From the IMG/VR virus record IMGVR_UViG_2721755728_000004: DNA of 49,782 nt; one strand, written 5' to 3'. Of the stretch, positions 37,064 to 41,972 are shown piece by piece (positions within the stretch are counted from its first letter, which is position 1; each line of letters starts with the position of its first letter). The position numbers were made by a program, and so were the translations under genes. The stretch comes from a virus. Taxonomy: Duplodnaviria; Heunggongvirae; Uroviricota; Caudoviricetes. The notes beneath the pieces are model-generated. The model was given only the letters and a program-made list of their open reading frames with translations, was not told the DNA's origin and ran no database searches.

Positions 37064-37219
37064 TTACTCCTCAGGTTCGTAAGCTGTGAAGACAGCGACC
37101 TCCGTCTGGCCGGTTCGGATTCGTACCTCGCAGAGGTCTTTCCTCGTTACCAGTGCCGTCACTATGACGGTTAAACAGATGACGATCAGGGCGATTAACA
37201 TCGCCTTTTGCTGCTTCAT
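37064..37219 (-). CDS. hokD: Hok-family membrane toxin (HokD/RelF)
   Basis: 51-aa ORF below the track cutoff, found by hand: MKQQKAMLIALIVICLTVIVTALVTRKDLCEVRIRTGQTEVAVFTAYEPEE. Confidence 0.85.
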   Translation of the reverse strand: MKQQKAMLIALIVICLTVIVTALVTRKDLCEVRIRTGQTEVAVFTAYEPEE

Positions 37220-37290
37220 AGCCTGCTTCTCCTGTCAACGCAAAGCAGAAGTGTCACCTTCGGTGCGAAACAGAGATGTCATGCTTTGGT

Positions 37291-37578
37291 TCAGAGAATG
37301 CGTTTGACCGCCTCGCTATATACTTCCGAGCGTTCTCTTTTCCCAACAGAAATCACGAAAACGACAACTTTCTCGTCTATAACCTGGTATACAAGGCGAT
37401 AGCCTGAAGACCGGAGCTTAATCTTGTAACAATCAGGCATACCACGGAGCTTGTTTGCTTCAATCCGGGGTGACTCAAGTACTTCAACCAGCTTCTTTTT
37501 CAACTGTTCACGTACCGTCGAGCCCAGCTTTCGCCATTCCTTTAGTGCCCGCTCGTCAAAATCCAGAAAATACGCCAT
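37291..37578 (-). CDS. relE: mRNA interferase toxin RelE
   Basis: 95 aa, MAYFLDFDERALKEWRKL.. Confidence 0.9.
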   Translation of the reverse strand: MAYFLDFDERALKEWRKLGSTVREQLKKKLVEVLESPRIEANKLRGMPDCYKIKLRSSGYRLVYQVIDEKVVVFVISVGKRERSEVYSEAVKRIL

Positions 37579-37817
37579 CAGAGTTCATCCAGCGTCACAC
37601 GTACTGGCTTAGGATTACGAAGCCGTTCTTTCACTATCTCCACAAGTTCAGCATCTTCATCACTCAGGAGTGTCTGTTTGAACGGCAAGCGTTCATTGTC
37701 AGCGATATACTCGAGCATGAGACGAAGCGCTTCAGAAGGAGTTACACCCATTTTTTCAAGCGCGGCGTAAGAACGCGCTTTAAGTTCATCGTCAATACGC
37801 AGGTTAATGCTACCCAT
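37578..37817 (-). CDS. relB: Antitoxin RelB
   Basis: 79 aa, MGSINLRIDDELKARSY..; stop overlaps the relE start. Confidence 0.9.
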   Translation of the reverse strand: MGSINLRIDDELKARSYAALEKMGVTPSEALRLMLEYIADNERLPFKQTLLSDEDAELVEIVKERLRNPKPVRVTLDEL

Positions 37818-37828
37818 GTCTTACACCT

Positions 37829-37854
37829 CTTGTAATTACAAATGTCATTACAAG
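37829..37854 (-). promoter_or_regulatory. relBE operator/promoter region (TTGTAAT palindromic repeats)
   Basis: cttgtaattacaaatgtcattacaag lies immediately upstream of the relB ATG and contains the perfect palindrome ttgtaattacaa. Confidence 0.5.
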
Positions 37855-38299
37855 TATCGCACTACAACATGCTTAGGGCAAGTCACGAAGGAAGTCAGAA
37901 AGTAGTCGTAAGAACGGTGATCACTGTCCGCTTTGTGCCAGGAGCAGCCATTGCTAAGTCCATCCTGTATTGTGCAGGTCAGCTCGCTTTTAAAGAGTCC
38001 GGCCATCATCTTACTGGTACAGACACCATATACTTTGTGACGGTCAGGCTACATATGCACAACTCAACTTATTCATCTATTTTTTGCTTTAGCATGTCAG
38101 TGTTGCTTTCTCGTCGGCGGGTGAGCGGTGACCTGACCTGTCGATAAAGGAACGTAGCACGTTTTATGCAACACCCGCATGCGGCAGAAAATTATTGCCG
38201 AACGTTTACCCCTGTCAACAAGCTTTACTTTCTGAGGCGCGCCAGCCCGCGAGGAAAACAATCTGAACATCAAACAATTAATGACACAAGAAATACGAT

Positions 38300-38326
38300 T
38301 AAAGATTTTTTTGTGCATGCCGATAG
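38300..38326 (+). promoter_or_regulatory. Sigma-28 (FliA) class 3 promoter for flxA
   Basis: TAAAGATT-N11-GCCGATAG, close to consensus TAAAGTTT-N11-GCCGATAA, 24 nt upstream of the flxA ATG. Confidence 0.6.
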
Positions 38327-38349
38327 TGCTTTTTTAAAAGGAGAAATCT

Positions 38350-38682
38350 ATGTCTGTCACAATTCAGGGAAATACCTCAACCGTTATTTCAAACAACTCC
38401 GCCCCGGAAGGAACATCAGAAATAGCCAAAATCACAAGACAAATTCAGGTGCTGACTGAAAAGCTTGGGAAAATCTCATCGGAAGAGGGGATGACGACAC
38501 AGCAGAAAAAAGAAATGGCTGCATTGGTACAGAAGCAAATTGAAAGCCTCAGGGCTCAACTGGAGCAGTTGTTAAGGCAGCAGGCAGAGAAAAAGAATAA
38601 AGACGCGACAGTTCAGCCTGATAAAAAAGAAGAGAAAAAAGACGATACAAATACCGCTGGCACCATTGATATTTACGTCTAA
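38350..38682 (+). CDS. flxA: FliA-regulated protein FlxA
   Basis: 110 aa, MSVTIQGNTSTVISNNSAPEG..; RBS AAAGGAG. Confidence 0.85.
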   Translation: MSVTIQGNTSTVISNNSAPEGTSEIAKITRQIQVLTEKLGKISSEEGMTTQQKKEMAALVQKQIESLRAQLEQLLRQQAEKKNKDATVQPDKKEEKKDDTNTAGTIDIYV

Positions 38683-38696
38683 GTGACAGCCGTATT

Positions 38697-38720
38697 GTGG
38701 CCCTCATCGGGCCACTTTTC
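38697..38720 (+). terminator. Rho-independent terminator of flxA
   Basis: Hairpin gtggccc-tcatc-gggccac followed by TTTT. Confidence 0.6.
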
Positions 38721-38898
38721 GCCATCAGCCTTTTCTTTAAAGACATATTATCTTTGTATCATTTCTGATAGTTAACATTACAAGATATAAGTAATGGACG
38801 CACTCCCAATTAGTCTATTTAAATCGCCACGAGTTTAACTGACAACCCATGATCAATTATGAATTGCAACTATTTCTGTAGTCACTTTTGTGGGGACA

Positions 38899-40482
38899 GT
38901 CCACAAAACTGCCAACTTCCGCTTCTTGCTCTTAGCGGACATTAGCATAGGCTATTTACCATAACGCCTCATTACGCGCACCGCCCAGACTGACTCAGCG
39001 CGTTTCTGGCATATCCCCGGTAAAACAAGTAACAAACCACCCGAAAATGAACACCAGAAACGCGACTTAAGAATCTACCCTATGAATGGATATGCACTCA
39101 ACCGAATCGATCTTGGTTTCAATCTATTTTATCGGGATCAGGCTTCTTTTTAGGTAACTTCGGGGGCTTAACTTGCTGATGACTTTGCGTTCGGCGCGTA
39201 GGCCAGGGATGGTCAGCTTTAGATTTAACATAGTATTTTGAGCGTAAATCAATACGGGCATTATCCACTCGTTCATGGACACTCTTTTCATCATCCAGTG
39301 GTATAGGCTCCGGGCCATCAACATACTTTTCCCAGCCCAGCGCTTTCCCGTCATACAGAACGTTAATTTCACCGTCAAAGTTCTCACATACAGTAACAAC
39401 CGAATGCCTAAGTCGATATCCCCGGCCCTCACTGCGTACCTGAAACGCACTGCTTTTGTACTGGAAAGTGAGATTTTTAGACAGAACGCGCTTCGCCTGT
39501 AGGCTGAAGATATAACCCAGTTCCTCTTCAGAATGGTGCACATCAAGATGAGCATTATCAGTAGTACGAGGCGACGTAGCGAACCGGTTGTTATAGGCTT
39601 CAATAAAGGTCGGCAACCATGCATTTGCTGTTTCAATATCACTGATATTCTGAAGCCACATTTCTTTGACCAGCCTGTCCTGTAGTGTCTGATTGGCGCG
39701 CTCTACCCGCCCTTTTGCCTGCGGGCTGTTGGCATGGATTGGCTCGATGCCCAGTGTCTTTATCGCACGAGTGAACTGGGTCAGCTCACCTTCCCGCTCT
39801 GGGTTATTTACCCTGAATATACTGTGTCTATCAGAGTAGAGAGCGAGCGGTACGCCATGATCATTAAGGTAACCCCGGAGGGTTTCCATGTAAGCCCGGG
39901 TTGTTTCAGCAGGCACAAAACGCAACGCCATCAACGCACTGGTGGCATCATCAATGAAAACGATCAGTGTACATCTGGGGCCTCGATTTTCAAACCAGTC
40001 ATGAGGTGAGCCATCAATCTGGATCAGTTCACCGTAAGATGGTCGTCGCATGCGGCGTTGATATATACGGGCAATTTTACGACGGCGTTCACGCCATAAC
40101 CCCTCTTCTATCATCCACTTTCTGAGAGTTTCAACGGATAAAGATAAACCGTGTATCTCGCGCAATTTTTCGCACGCAAACGTAGGTCCAAAATCAGCGT
40201 AACGGCCTTTGAGGAGTGAAATTACTGTTGCTCTGAATTCAGTAGAAAAGGAATTATTAGGACGCTTTCCACGTCGGTGGGAAACCAGACCAGAAGGCCC
40301 TTCATTTCTATACCGTTGCACCAGACGTTTAACCTGCCGAATAGAAATGCCAATGCGTGCCGCAGCTTGTTCCTGAGTAATATGTCGATTAATTGACTCC
40401 TGAATAATCTGAAGTCGGTGGAGTTCCTTATGACTCATCGTAACAGTCTCTTTGATCATGAAAAATCCCCCAGAGAATTGTC
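38899..40482. mobile_element. Putative insertion sequence, about 1.58 kb, carrying one DDE transposase
   Basis: Bracketed by identical 8-bp direct repeats TGGGGACA (38891..38898 and 40483..40490) that may be a target-site duplication. Terminal inverted repeats could not be identified, so boundaries are tentative. Confidence 0.4.
39119..40459 (-). CDS. DDE transposase with integrase-core (rve) domain and N-terminal HTH (IS481/ISNCY-like)
   Basis: 446 aa; HTH N-terminus, then D (QIDGSPH), D (YSDRHS) and E (GRVERANQ) spaced like retroviral-integrase-type transposases. Confidence 0.7.
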   Translation of the reverse strand: MIKETVTMSHKELHRLQIIQESINRHITQEQAAARIGISIRQVKRLVQRYRNEGPSGLVSHRRGKRPNNSFSTEFRATVISLLKGRYADFGPTFACEKLREIHGLSLSVETLRKWMIEEGLWRERRRKIARIYQRRMRRPSYGELIQIDGSPHDWFENRGPRCTLIVFIDDATSALMALRFVPAETTRAYMETLRGYLNDHGVPLALYSDRHSIFRVNNPEREGELTQFTRAIKTLGIEPIHANSPQAKGRVERANQTLQDRLVKEMWLQNISDIETANAWLPTFIEAYNNRFATSPRTTDNAHLDVHHSEEELGYIFSLQAKRVLSKNLTFQYKSSAFQVRSEGRGYRLRHSVVTVCENFDGEINVLYDGKALGWEKYVDGPEPIPLDDEKSVHERVDNARIDLRSKYYVKSKADHPWPTRRTQSHQQVKPPKLPKKKPDPDKID

Positions 40483-40492
40483 TGGGGACATT

Positions 40493-40912
40493 TTAGAATG
40501 GTTCAAAGGGGACATTACAGCTTGATGTTAACAATAGCCTGCTTCTCCTTGCCTTCCGGCACTCGCGACAGATTATGTTTAGACGACTGTCGTAGCGACG
40601 TATTTCTCCGTCAGGTAATGACCAGATAAGGTCCGGATCAACCACAGCAGGTTTCTTCACCTTTGCCCTCGAGAGTTTTTTGCGGGCGTTTTGCCAGTCC
40701 TTACGCGCCTGTTCAGACGGGAATAACCCGTAACCAGAGCTGTATACATCGCCACTGGCAACCAGCTCTCTGGCCAGAACGCTCATCAGATATCTTGTTG
40801 CCCCAGTTTTAGCTTCCAGTTGTCGTAACGTCTCGCGCCCACTCTGGCGTACGAGTTCCACCACCTGCCCTTTAATTTTTTCCCGCTCTTCTTGTGTAAA
40901 AACTTTTGCCAC
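40493..40912 (-). CDS. Hypothetical early-region protein (139 aa)
   Basis: ORF ending 3 nt outside the putative IS; basic C-terminus; no family recognised. Confidence 0.45.
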   Translation of the reverse strand: MAKVFTQEEREKIKGQVVELVRQSGRETLRQLEAKTGATRYLMSVLARELVASGDVYSSGYGLFPSEQARKDWQNARKKLSRAKVKKPAVVDPDLIWSLPDGEIRRYDSRLNIICRECRKARRSRLLLTSSCNVPFEPF

Positions 40913-40952
40913 AAGTCCTCCTGAACATTACTTTATACCCTAAAATCAACAC

Positions 40953-41972
40953 TTATCCCCTGAAACCAGGCGGAATTTCTGTATCCGGTTCAGAAATATG
41001 ATTCACACAACGCTTTACAGGTGAACGTCCCAGGCGGATGACCAGTTCGTCCCATTTTTCGCGGAGTTTTGACGGGCTCATGATGTTTTTTACCCAGAAT
41101 TGATCTCGCTGTACCCGACCAAACATTTCGCAAATTTGTCTGTGGCTTCTGCCATCCAGCATCCGCATTGTGCGCACGTCATTGGCCCAGGCTGTCCAGT
41201 TAGGCTCTTTTGGTCGCATGATCTCTCCATCGTCGCTGGCAGCCTGTTCGTAAAGGTTCACGATCCGCCCCCAAATCCACTGCGCACACGCCAAATCCTC
41301 CCTGCTACCCCACTGGCGTTTTTTCGCACTAAACACAACCGCGTCGGGGTTCCGGGTTAAAAAATCCTGTTCAGCGGTCTGCGGGTCCGGTTGCGAAGCT
41401 TCCGGACGAAAAGTGTTTTTATTCTCTGTAGTAATCTCTGTTGTATTCTCTGTAAGATCATCAGGCCATTTTGACCCGATGACATTGGGTCGTTTTGAAC
41501 CAATGGAGCGTTTCATTTTGACCTCTTCCATCGTGTCATTTTGACCTGATGGAGCGGCGCATTTTAAACCGATGGATTCGCTCAATTTGCCACCATCTAA
41601 AAGCTCGCTCCCGTAGTTGATCGTGTAGAAATTGGTCATATCGCGCTTTGATTTATTGAGCTTTTCACAACGCAAAAGCCCCAGCGTTTTCAGACTTGCA
41701 AACGCGCGCTTTAACGTTGACTCTGACCAGAATGGGAACTGTTCCAGCCATTGTTCCGTTGTGTTGTAAATCCAGCGAACACCATCACATTCCATGCCGG
41801 AATTGGTATCTCTCAACCAGTAATGCAACTGCTGCAACACAATGGCTTCATTTAAGCCAATCTTCATCGCAAGCTGTGTGTTTATAACCAGTGGGCGTTC
41901 AGCAAAAAGAAGGCTCATAATTCCATCCAGCTTTTTGTTGGTATTGCTGTCGATACGCAAGTTTGAAAGCAA
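40953..41972 (-). CDS. Phage replication initiation protein (O-like replisome organiser)
   Basis: N-terminal region resembles phage replisome-organiser domains; downstream of the Cro-like gene in the rightward early operon. Confidence 0.55.
   Translation of the reverse strand: MLSNLRIDSNTNKKLDGIMSLLFAERPLVINTQLAMKIGLNEAIVLQQLHYWLRDTNSGMECDGVRWIYNTTEQWLEQFPFWSESTLKRAFASLKTLGLLRCEKLNKSKRDMTNFYTINYGSELLDGGKLSESIGLKCAAPSGQNDTMEEVKMKRSIGSKRPNVIGSKWPDDLTENTTEITTENKNTFRPEASQPDPQTAEQDFLTRNPDAVVFSAKKRQWGSREDLACAQWIWGRIVNLYEQAASDDGEIMRPKEPNWTAWANDVRTMRMLDGRSHRQICEMFGRVQRDQFWVKNIMSPSKLREKWDELVIRLGRSPVKRCVNHISEPDTEIPPGFRG

Follow-up and report, generated by a model that had tools for sequence, protein, structure and literature searches.

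Evidence for an ISEsa1-type transposon carrying relBE and inserted on hokD in a Qin-like prophage of Escherichia coli

The relBE genes of Escherichia coli K-12 are a model toxin-antitoxin system, and their linkage to hokD (relF) has so far stood as an unexplained horizontal acquisition. Ramisetty and colleagues hold that relBE integrated into hokD from plasmids, and name no vehicle. The mobile elements closest to the locus described here belong to the IS1202 group of ISNCY, in which Harmer and Hall (2023; PMC10132070) list ISEsa1 as an insertion sequence (IS) of 1609 bp that encodes a protein of 439 aa, has inverted repeats matching at 15/22 positions and shows neither a duplication nor a target; the same authors modelled the IS1202-family transposase on TnsB. 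Siguier and colleagues (bioRxiv 10.1101/2022.12.17.520857) describe a subgroup with 15-17-bp duplications and suggest that repeat-lacking elements are rearranged. We analysed a stretch of 49,782 nucleotides, the Caudoviricetes record IMGVR_UViG_2721755728_000004 (hereafter the window), in which a Qin-like lambdoid prophage of E. coli carries a transposase gene of this family close to relBE and hokD.

The locus resembles ISEsa1 in the name that PGAP gives the transposase on identical DNA of other strains ('IS1202-like element ISEsa1 family transposase'), in the length of the protein (446 aa here, 439 aa as listed) and in a Cronobacter sakazakii plasmid copy that is 91% identical to the window element. 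It differs from ISEsa1, as the latter is described in tabulated form, in that the unit measures 3.3-12.8 kb, includes relBE and cargo, is flanked by 15-16-bp duplications and lies at hok starts. The results make it very probable that the real unit is an IS1202-family transposon of ISEsa1 type that spans 37233..40533 of the window (3301 bp) and is inserted on hokD. Along the transposase strand it consists of a left inverted repeat (IRL), the transposase gene (tnp), the palindrome PAL1, cargo (flxA, ydfV), the palindrome PAL2, the relBE promoter, relB, relE and a right inverted repeat (IRR).

The left end was delimited by comparison with other copies. Those found at 99% or 91% identity on Klebsiella, Enterobacter, Phytobacter, Cronobacter and other plasmids match the window only over 38914-40533, and high-identity homology with all plasmid and genome copies stops at 40533; beyond this point similarity is looser and runs to 40561. 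On the transposase strand the IRL terminus is TGTTAACATCAAGCTGTAATGTCCCC, and AAATGTCCCC recurs 23 nt further inward. A 50%-identical relative in the Rhabdochlamydiaceae measures 1466 bp and presents TGT...ACA ends, clean 16-bp duplications and the same end layout. At least nine copies of it, 99.9% identical and located at unrelated AT-rich sites, are found in the metagenome-assembled genome (MAG) LVE1205-5 (L034-L039, L044, L045, L050), and it has the appearance of a simple IS of this lineage that was active not long ago. Because the terminus layout equals that of this multicopy relative, we take 40533 as the true left end.

The right end lies on the far side of relBE, at 37233, and has the sequence ...TTTGCGTTGACA, the canonical right terminus of the family; chlamydial, alphaproteobacterial and enterobacterial relatives keep it too. 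The two inverted repeats agree at 21/30 positions, a score reached by about 1 in 100,000 random 30-mers of the window. Both have the outer 5'-TGT ... ACA-3' ends of the IS1202 family and, as in that family, repeated internal sites, here AATGTCC-type motifs at about nt 19 and nt 42-43 of each end. An earlier note on this DNA had failed to find convincing terminal inverted repeats and had expressed doubt about its own ends; the doubt was justified, and such repeats do exist once the ends are placed correctly. Immediately outside the two termini lie the only two instances in the window of the 15-mer GGAGAAGCAGGCTAT, and two hits were obtained in 0/100 shuffles. Upstream of the hokD ATG the minus strand reads ...CTTCTGCTTTGCGTTGACA, then GGAGAAGCAGGCTAT, then G AAG CAG. 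Since the IRR terminus, the 15-bp repeat and the matching ends concur, the unit is delimited as the 3301 bp given above. Duplications in the IS1202 family have a length specific to each subgroup (5-6, 15-17 or 27-28 bp), and we found 15 bp here and 15-16 bp at three other insertions. A simple IS of this family spans about 1.3-1.75 kb and contains only the transposase gene; the unit, 3301 bp long in the window and 6.1 or 12.8 kb at other sites, is a passenger-carrying transposon and not a simple IS. A version in which 38914 was an IS end, and the missing duplication was blamed on adjacent deletions removing hok, was dropped after the distal IRR and duplication were found. Plasmid matches of 165 bp to 38913-39077, considered as a separate non-coding element, were rejected as remnants truncated by IS26.

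The insertion falls precisely on the ribosome-binding site and ATG of hokD, the open reading frame (ORF) of which is 82% identical to HokC, and it cuts this gene off from its leader. The DNA next to IRL belongs, in nearly all copies, to diverged members of one sequence family. Rfam model RF01794 (labelled 'sok' but effectively describing the 5' leader of hok mRNA) matches this DNA with 81-112 bits in eight loci, each match ending at the IRL terminus, and the hok leader stands in the same register at 18/28 distinct IRL flanks. The junction reads ...GCAAGGAGAAGnAGGCyAT(G) followed by TGTTAACA, that is, the hok ribosome-binding site and start codon joined to the transposon, and the target hairpin is TGCCGAAAGGCA, with GGAG. 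On positions 38000-41500 of the window itself Rfam returned no hit, and the leader was recognised only in the other copies. Compared with dif/Xer consensus sites, the IRL flank gave no convincing match.

Comparison of an empty and a filled site corroborates this assignment. In E. coli 2A (L014) an intact leader (RF01794, 115 bits, ending at the hokD ATG) is joined straight to hokD with a single copy of GGAGAAGCAGGCTATG, whereas in Shigella flexneri (L026) the same leader (104 bits, ending at IRL) is followed by the element and then by the repeat and hokD, so that the repeat is present on both sides; a hok target of this kind consists of an RF01794 leader immediately preceding a Hok ORF. The site is likewise uninterrupted in other E. 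coli prophages and in Stx phages: the match to the window stops exactly at 37232/37233 in Stx phages (933W, VT2-Sakai, hokW/mokW) and in E. coli genomes numbering thousands. Another locus (H141/L012) was rejected as an empty site, because the DNA between 38965 and 40723 is deleted there. A scan for Hok ORFs beside PAL1 yielded none except in a Citrobacter copy (L027), which adjoins the duplication and a hok ORF in inverse orientation.

Several other hok loci contain the transposon with different cargo; its position and orientation are unchanged, and each locus has its own 15-16-bp duplication. On the IncF plasmid pCAV1151-215 the unit measures 12,843 bp, carries HupE, chrBA, a methyltransferase and ncrABCY, and is flanked by GGAGAAGTCAGCTATG; on the IncHI2 plasmid p505108-MDR of C. 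sakazakii it measures 6,093 bp, carries a CDF transporter, a cytochrome b and an ISEsa2 insertion, and is flanked by GGAGAAGAAGGCCAT. Both copies present the order IRL, tnp, cargo, relB, relE, IRR and lie at the ribosome-binding site/ATG of the plasmid's own hok. Genome 2534681836 harbors one copy in hokD and a second in another hok locus, the fourth such locus, with the duplication TGGAGGGGCTATGATG. Its IMG/VR contigs L128 and L146 are reciprocal recombinants of these two copies, and each 16-bp duplication is split across the contigs. The four different duplication sequences argue against a single ancestral hok insertion that was spread by recombination. Between the window and pCAV1151-215, identity is 99.2% over 38914-40561 and 98.8% over 37215-37941, whereas the DNA in between is different throughout.

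This pattern reflects the internal organization of the unit. Wherever a locus extends far enough, the transposase is accompanied by the relBE pair and IRR. Adjacent relB and relE genes encode K-12-type proteins, as in type II RelBE systems; in strain C3, the sequence of which is identical to the window, the products are WP_000534858.1 and WP_000323025.1, and the same RelE accession is found in plasmid copies. PAL1 and PAL2 bracket the cargo in every copy examined, and the cargo between them differs among copies, with at least six segments observed (a 10.5-kb metal-resistance block, CDF with cytochrome b, LysR with two membrane proteins, and others). We also looked for direct repeats flanking the cargo, as expected had it been captured by the inner ends, and found none. 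In many plasmids (L008-L011, L016, L017, L019-L022) the IS110-family element ISEsa2 sits in the PAL1 loop, at the equivalent of window position 38923/38924, which suggests that ISEsa2 targets the PAL1 palindrome. Just outside PAL1, in the cargo, a hairpin at 38878-38916 has 16-nt arms that are 81% complementary; it encloses the left octamer of the earlier note, and its TGTCCCC resembles the IRL site motif.

The earlier note had described a 446-aa DDE transposase with a helix-turn-helix (HTH) N-terminus, placed between flxA and the early genes, and both points are borne out. N-terminal HTH domains (Pfam HTH_28/29/32/23) precede an rve_3 integrase core in the 446-aa ORF, the protein scores 460.8 bits against NCBIfam ISNCY_2 (cut-off 250), and flxA and a DUF977 ORF lie on its two sides. 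The catalytic D, D and E are all present, as is the Q seven residues past the catalytic E (E+7) that, together with the N-terminal HTH and the DDE RNase-H core, characterizes the IS1202 family; the segments IDGSPHDW, YSDRH and GRVERANQTLQ are kept in distant relatives. In strain C3 (L001 6420-7739, identical to window 39119-40459) PGAP reports a partial pseudogene and a separate 49-aa protein despite the intact ORF. This 49-aa product is labelled 'hypothetical protein' in C3 and 'YdfW' in other strains, and K-12 ydfW is the C-terminal tail of the 446-aa transposase. The order of genes in the region is rem, hokD, relE and relB (minus strand), ydfV and flxA (plus), tnp (minus), the DUF977 ORF, and replication and immunity genes. 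Coordinates are collected in Table 1.

Table 1. Window coordinates of the transposon, its target and adjoining features
Feature	Position	Strand	Remarks
hokD target gene	37064..37219	minus	now directly after relE
Target-site duplication beside IRR	37218-37232		GGAGAAGCAGGCTAT on the minus strand; hokD ribosome-binding site and AT of ATG
IRR	37233..37290	plus	TGTCAACGCAAAGCAGAAGTGTCACC...; second site near 37276-37282; terminus 37233, ...GCGTTGACA
relE toxin gene	37291..37578	minus	passenger kept in all full copies examined; stop 29 nt before IRR region
relB antitoxin gene	37578..37817	minus	passenger kept in all full copies examined
PAL2	37922..37952		30-bp palindrome with PAL1 arm motif; inner edge of conserved relBE module
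Variable cargo	37953..38913	plus	3' part of ydfV (ORF 37842..38147), flxA (38350..38682) and terminator
PAL1	38914..38943		30-bp palindrome, two inverted transposase-site motifs AACTTCCGCT...AGCGGACATT; inner edge of transposase module
Transposase gene	39119..40459	minus	continuous 446-aa ORF, HTH and DDE, IS1202 family, ISEsa1 type
Second subterminal transposase-site repeat of IRL	40483..40492	minus	AAATGTCCCCA; holds the right-hand octamer of the earlier note
DUF977 ORF, 139 aa	40493..40912		next to transposase gene on the side away from flxA
IRL	40504..40533	minus	TGTTAACATCAAGCTGTAATGTCCCCTTTG; terminus 40533, begins TGTTAACA
Target-site duplication beside IRL	40534-40548		perfect 15-bp match to the copy at 37218-37232
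hok mRNA leader remnant, last 28 nt	40534..40561	minus	fused to DUF977 gene by ~2-kb deletion

The window copy has been modified since its insertion. Relative to Shigella L026 and the inducible phage PhiR42_1, about 2 kb have been lost between DUF977 and the hok leader, with the junction at the microhomology TGCCG(G/A)AAG. The DUF977 ORF is consequently chimeric over 40493-40561: its last ~13 codons and stop come from the transposon IRL and the ~9 preceding codons from the hok-leader remnant, so that, owing to this deletion, the last ~22 codons are leader- and IRL-derived. The statement that the element had inserted 3 nt after the stop of this 139-aa gene is correct as to position but misleading, for the stop and ~13 codons lie inside the transposon end, which extends to 40533. 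K-12 keeps 37133-39303, comprising IRR, relBE, ydfV, flxA and the transposase tail (ydfW), and has lost most of tnp and IRL. At least 80% of the unit is present in 759/5426 complete E. coli genomes, at one locus.

Several individual loci show further particularities. In Kluyvera (L025, 2837-2950) IRL abuts a match to Rfam isrO (RF01397, 58.8 bits), the repeat at L101 is only 6 bp long (CGCCTT), L066 lies inside a tandem-repeat region and the flank of L147 is unrelated. In two IMG/VR prophage contigs (L099 and L107) IRR is joined to the middle of the hokD ORF, which is an IRR-adjacent deletion that took the duplication and the first ~26 hokD codons. In Leclercia sp. EMC7 (L028 2210-4400) a second, 78% related element starts only 10 bp past the IRR of an element with relBE, one hok site having been hit twice in tandem; this second element carries a different relE-like gene, 58% identical and in opposite orientation. 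L031 and L049 belong to a Chromatiales MAG with a transposase 60% identical, and the IRL flank of L031 (...TTACCTGCCGAGAACAAGACGGAGGGAAGCCG followed by TGTT) is loosely like the hok leader and ribosome-binding region, which hints that targeting of hok-like sites may extend to distant relatives.

Within the IS1202 family, the unit shares with the ISTde1 subgroup (15-17-bp direct repeats) the duplication length of 15-16 bp, the TGT termini and an internal repeat at about position 20 of the ends, but members of that subgroup are simple IS without reported target specificity, whereas the element described here is site-specific and carries passengers. Members of the ISAjo2/ISAba32 subgroup are likewise IS1202-family elements with one transposase that lie in fixed orientation and at fixed distance from a conserved structured plasmid site; their duplications, however, are of 5-6 bp and their targets are XerC/D (dif/pdif) sites, as opposed to 15-16 bp, the hok ribosome-binding site/ATG and no dif-like site seen here. 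The 'tIS' elements ISKpn21 and ISRel10 also carry passenger genes between IS1202-family ends, but they fall in the 5-bp subgroup, whereas the present unit combines a constant toxin-antitoxin passenger with a cargo slot between two palindromes.

Two better-known groups of transposons offer partial parallels. As in the Tn3-family transposons treated by Lima-Mendez et al. (2020; PMC7157771), the unit has a type II toxin-antitoxin pair as a fixed constituent and not as occasional cargo, but the transposase family and mechanism differ, and hok targeting is not described there. Like Tn7, the unit has TGT...ACA ends with multiple internal transposase sites and inserts at a set distance from a conserved sequence that is recognised (attTn7 in the case of Tn7). 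Tn7-like elements, however, possess a TnsA/TnsB/TnsC core and a TnsD or TnsE selector, and the present unit has no TnsA, TnsC, TnsD or TnsE genes; it has one transposition gene, the other ORFs being flxA, ydfV, relB and relE. Paywalled work and ISfinder/TnCentral entries aside, we found no description of the transposon unit or of hok targeting in the literature; the one curated account that came up is the ISEsa1 listing of 1609 bp without duplication or target.

The structure inferred for the unit is compatible with a reading in which the window copy no longer moves, a fossil that entered a Qin-like prophage on a single occasion and has been inherited passively ever since. The single copy at the same locus in all 759 of those E. 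coli genomes, the deleted versions in K-12 and other strains, one substitution in the window IRL relative to other copies, the mutation of one PAL1 arm (GCGGAAG for GCGGACA) and the four residues at which the transposase differs from the plasmid copy all fit such a history. The ORF, the catalytic residues and both termini are nonetheless intact, and 99% identical copies occupy other hok loci on plasmids, with a second copy at another hok locus within one genome. Because of these near-identical copies, movement must be recent on the scale of divergence, and we regard the fossil state as possible but unlikely.

Considerably less probable is a scheme of two neighbours, in which a self-mobile ISEsa1 of 1.62 kb (38914..40533) lies beside an unrelated relBE segment ending in a solo IRR that another copy left behind, the 15-bp repeat resulting from two successive hits on one hot spot. 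In all copies the transposase module does stop abruptly at PAL1, the ISfinder length of ISEsa1 is 1609 bp (PMC10132070), the distance from the ISEsa2 junction at 38925 to the IRL terminus at 40533 is exactly 1609 bp, and tandem hits on one hok site do occur (L028). However, in at least three cargo variants IRL is paired with the distal IRR by a perfect 15-16-bp repeat that differs from variant to variant; PAL1 has neither the terminal ~17 nt nor the TGT/ACA terminus of the family ends; a duplication enclosing just the transposase module was found in no copy; and relBE and IRR travel with the transposase in every sufficiently long locus. When a 1609-bp unit with 15/22 inverted repeats was sought around the gene, no 1609-bp frame exceeded 11/22. 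Finally, the simple IS of about 1.58 kb (1584 bp, at 38899..40482) with an 8-bp target duplication TGGGGACA put forward in the earlier note is hardly credible, for although the octamer is present at 38891-38898 and 40483-40490 with the transposase ORF in between, it occurs four times in the window against 1.46 expected (7/100 shuffles reach 4, which is not above chance), no inverted repeats were found at those boundaries, the right octamer is part of the second AATGTCCCC repeat of IRL, a repeated internal transposase site, and in every other copy the left octamer lies outside and the right octamer inside the common sequence, so that the octamer is not at the element ends and the model, which named this very comparison as its test, is already refuted.

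The 3301-bp transposon suggests the following mechanism. A TnsB-like DDE transposase would bind the repeated sites and cleave at the TGT/ACA termini (PMC10132070; bioRxiv 10.1101/2022.12.17.520857), would join these termini to target cuts staggered by 15-16 bp, and would select the conserved hairpin and ribosome-binding region of hok loci, which occur frequently on plasmids and prophages. Since the ribosome-binding site and the ATG are both restored by the duplication, hok would remain translatable, although read from the relBE promoter, and the known relB-relE-hokD ('relBEF') operon would result. Transcription of relBEF from the relBE promoter matches the reported co-transcription of relBE and hokD (Gotfredsen and Gerdes 1998, in the form in which PMC5120126 cites it). 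Retention of the element is probably aided by the relBE pair. Once the element was in place, the window lineage underwent the ~2-kb DUF977-leader loss, and K-12 the loss of most of tnp and IRL.

Some observations weigh against this account. Transposition activity and the basis of target choice are deduced from sequence comparison, and the published ISEsa1 entry (1609 bp, inverted repeats 15/22, no duplication; PMC10132070) was compared by its tabulated description only. The account assigns no role to PAL1 and PAL2 and no mode to the exchange of cargo, the cargo edges being devoid of direct repeats, and the occurrence of a single copy at one locus in the 759 E. coli genomes fits prophage inheritance better than ongoing movement. 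Moreover, L025, L066, L101 and L147 lie at non-hok sites or lack a clean duplication, and specificity for hok is therefore strong but not absolute, or else these copies have been rearranged.

A wider interpretation can be offered only tentatively. ISEsa1-type elements might constitute a distinct class of site-specific transposons that home to hok starts, sever the antisense-controlled leader and swap addiction modules, leaving the relBE promoter to drive hok, while the interval from PAL1 to PAL2 would serve as an exchangeable slot for metal-resistance and other genes. K-12 relBEF, flxA and ydfV might then derive from one insertion, and the 'no duplication, no target' group of IS1202 might reflect mis-set ends.

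The insertion appears to explain the origin of the relB-relE-hokD arrangement of E. coli, a linkage for which relBE, ydfV and flxA can now be regarded as passengers of one transposon. With regard to annotation, ydfW and the transposase 'pseudogene' annotated in E. coli are pieces of a single gene. For the IS1202 family, ISEsa1-type elements gain correct ends, a 15-16-bp duplication and a target, which would remove the anomalous 'no duplication' group, and hok loci become a second kind of target specificity in the family. On Klebsiella and Enterobacter plasmids, the nickel/chromate (ncrABCY, chrBA) and CDF/cytochrome b blocks lie inside such transposons, and interrupted hok loci mark the sites at which these transposons have inserted on plasmids.

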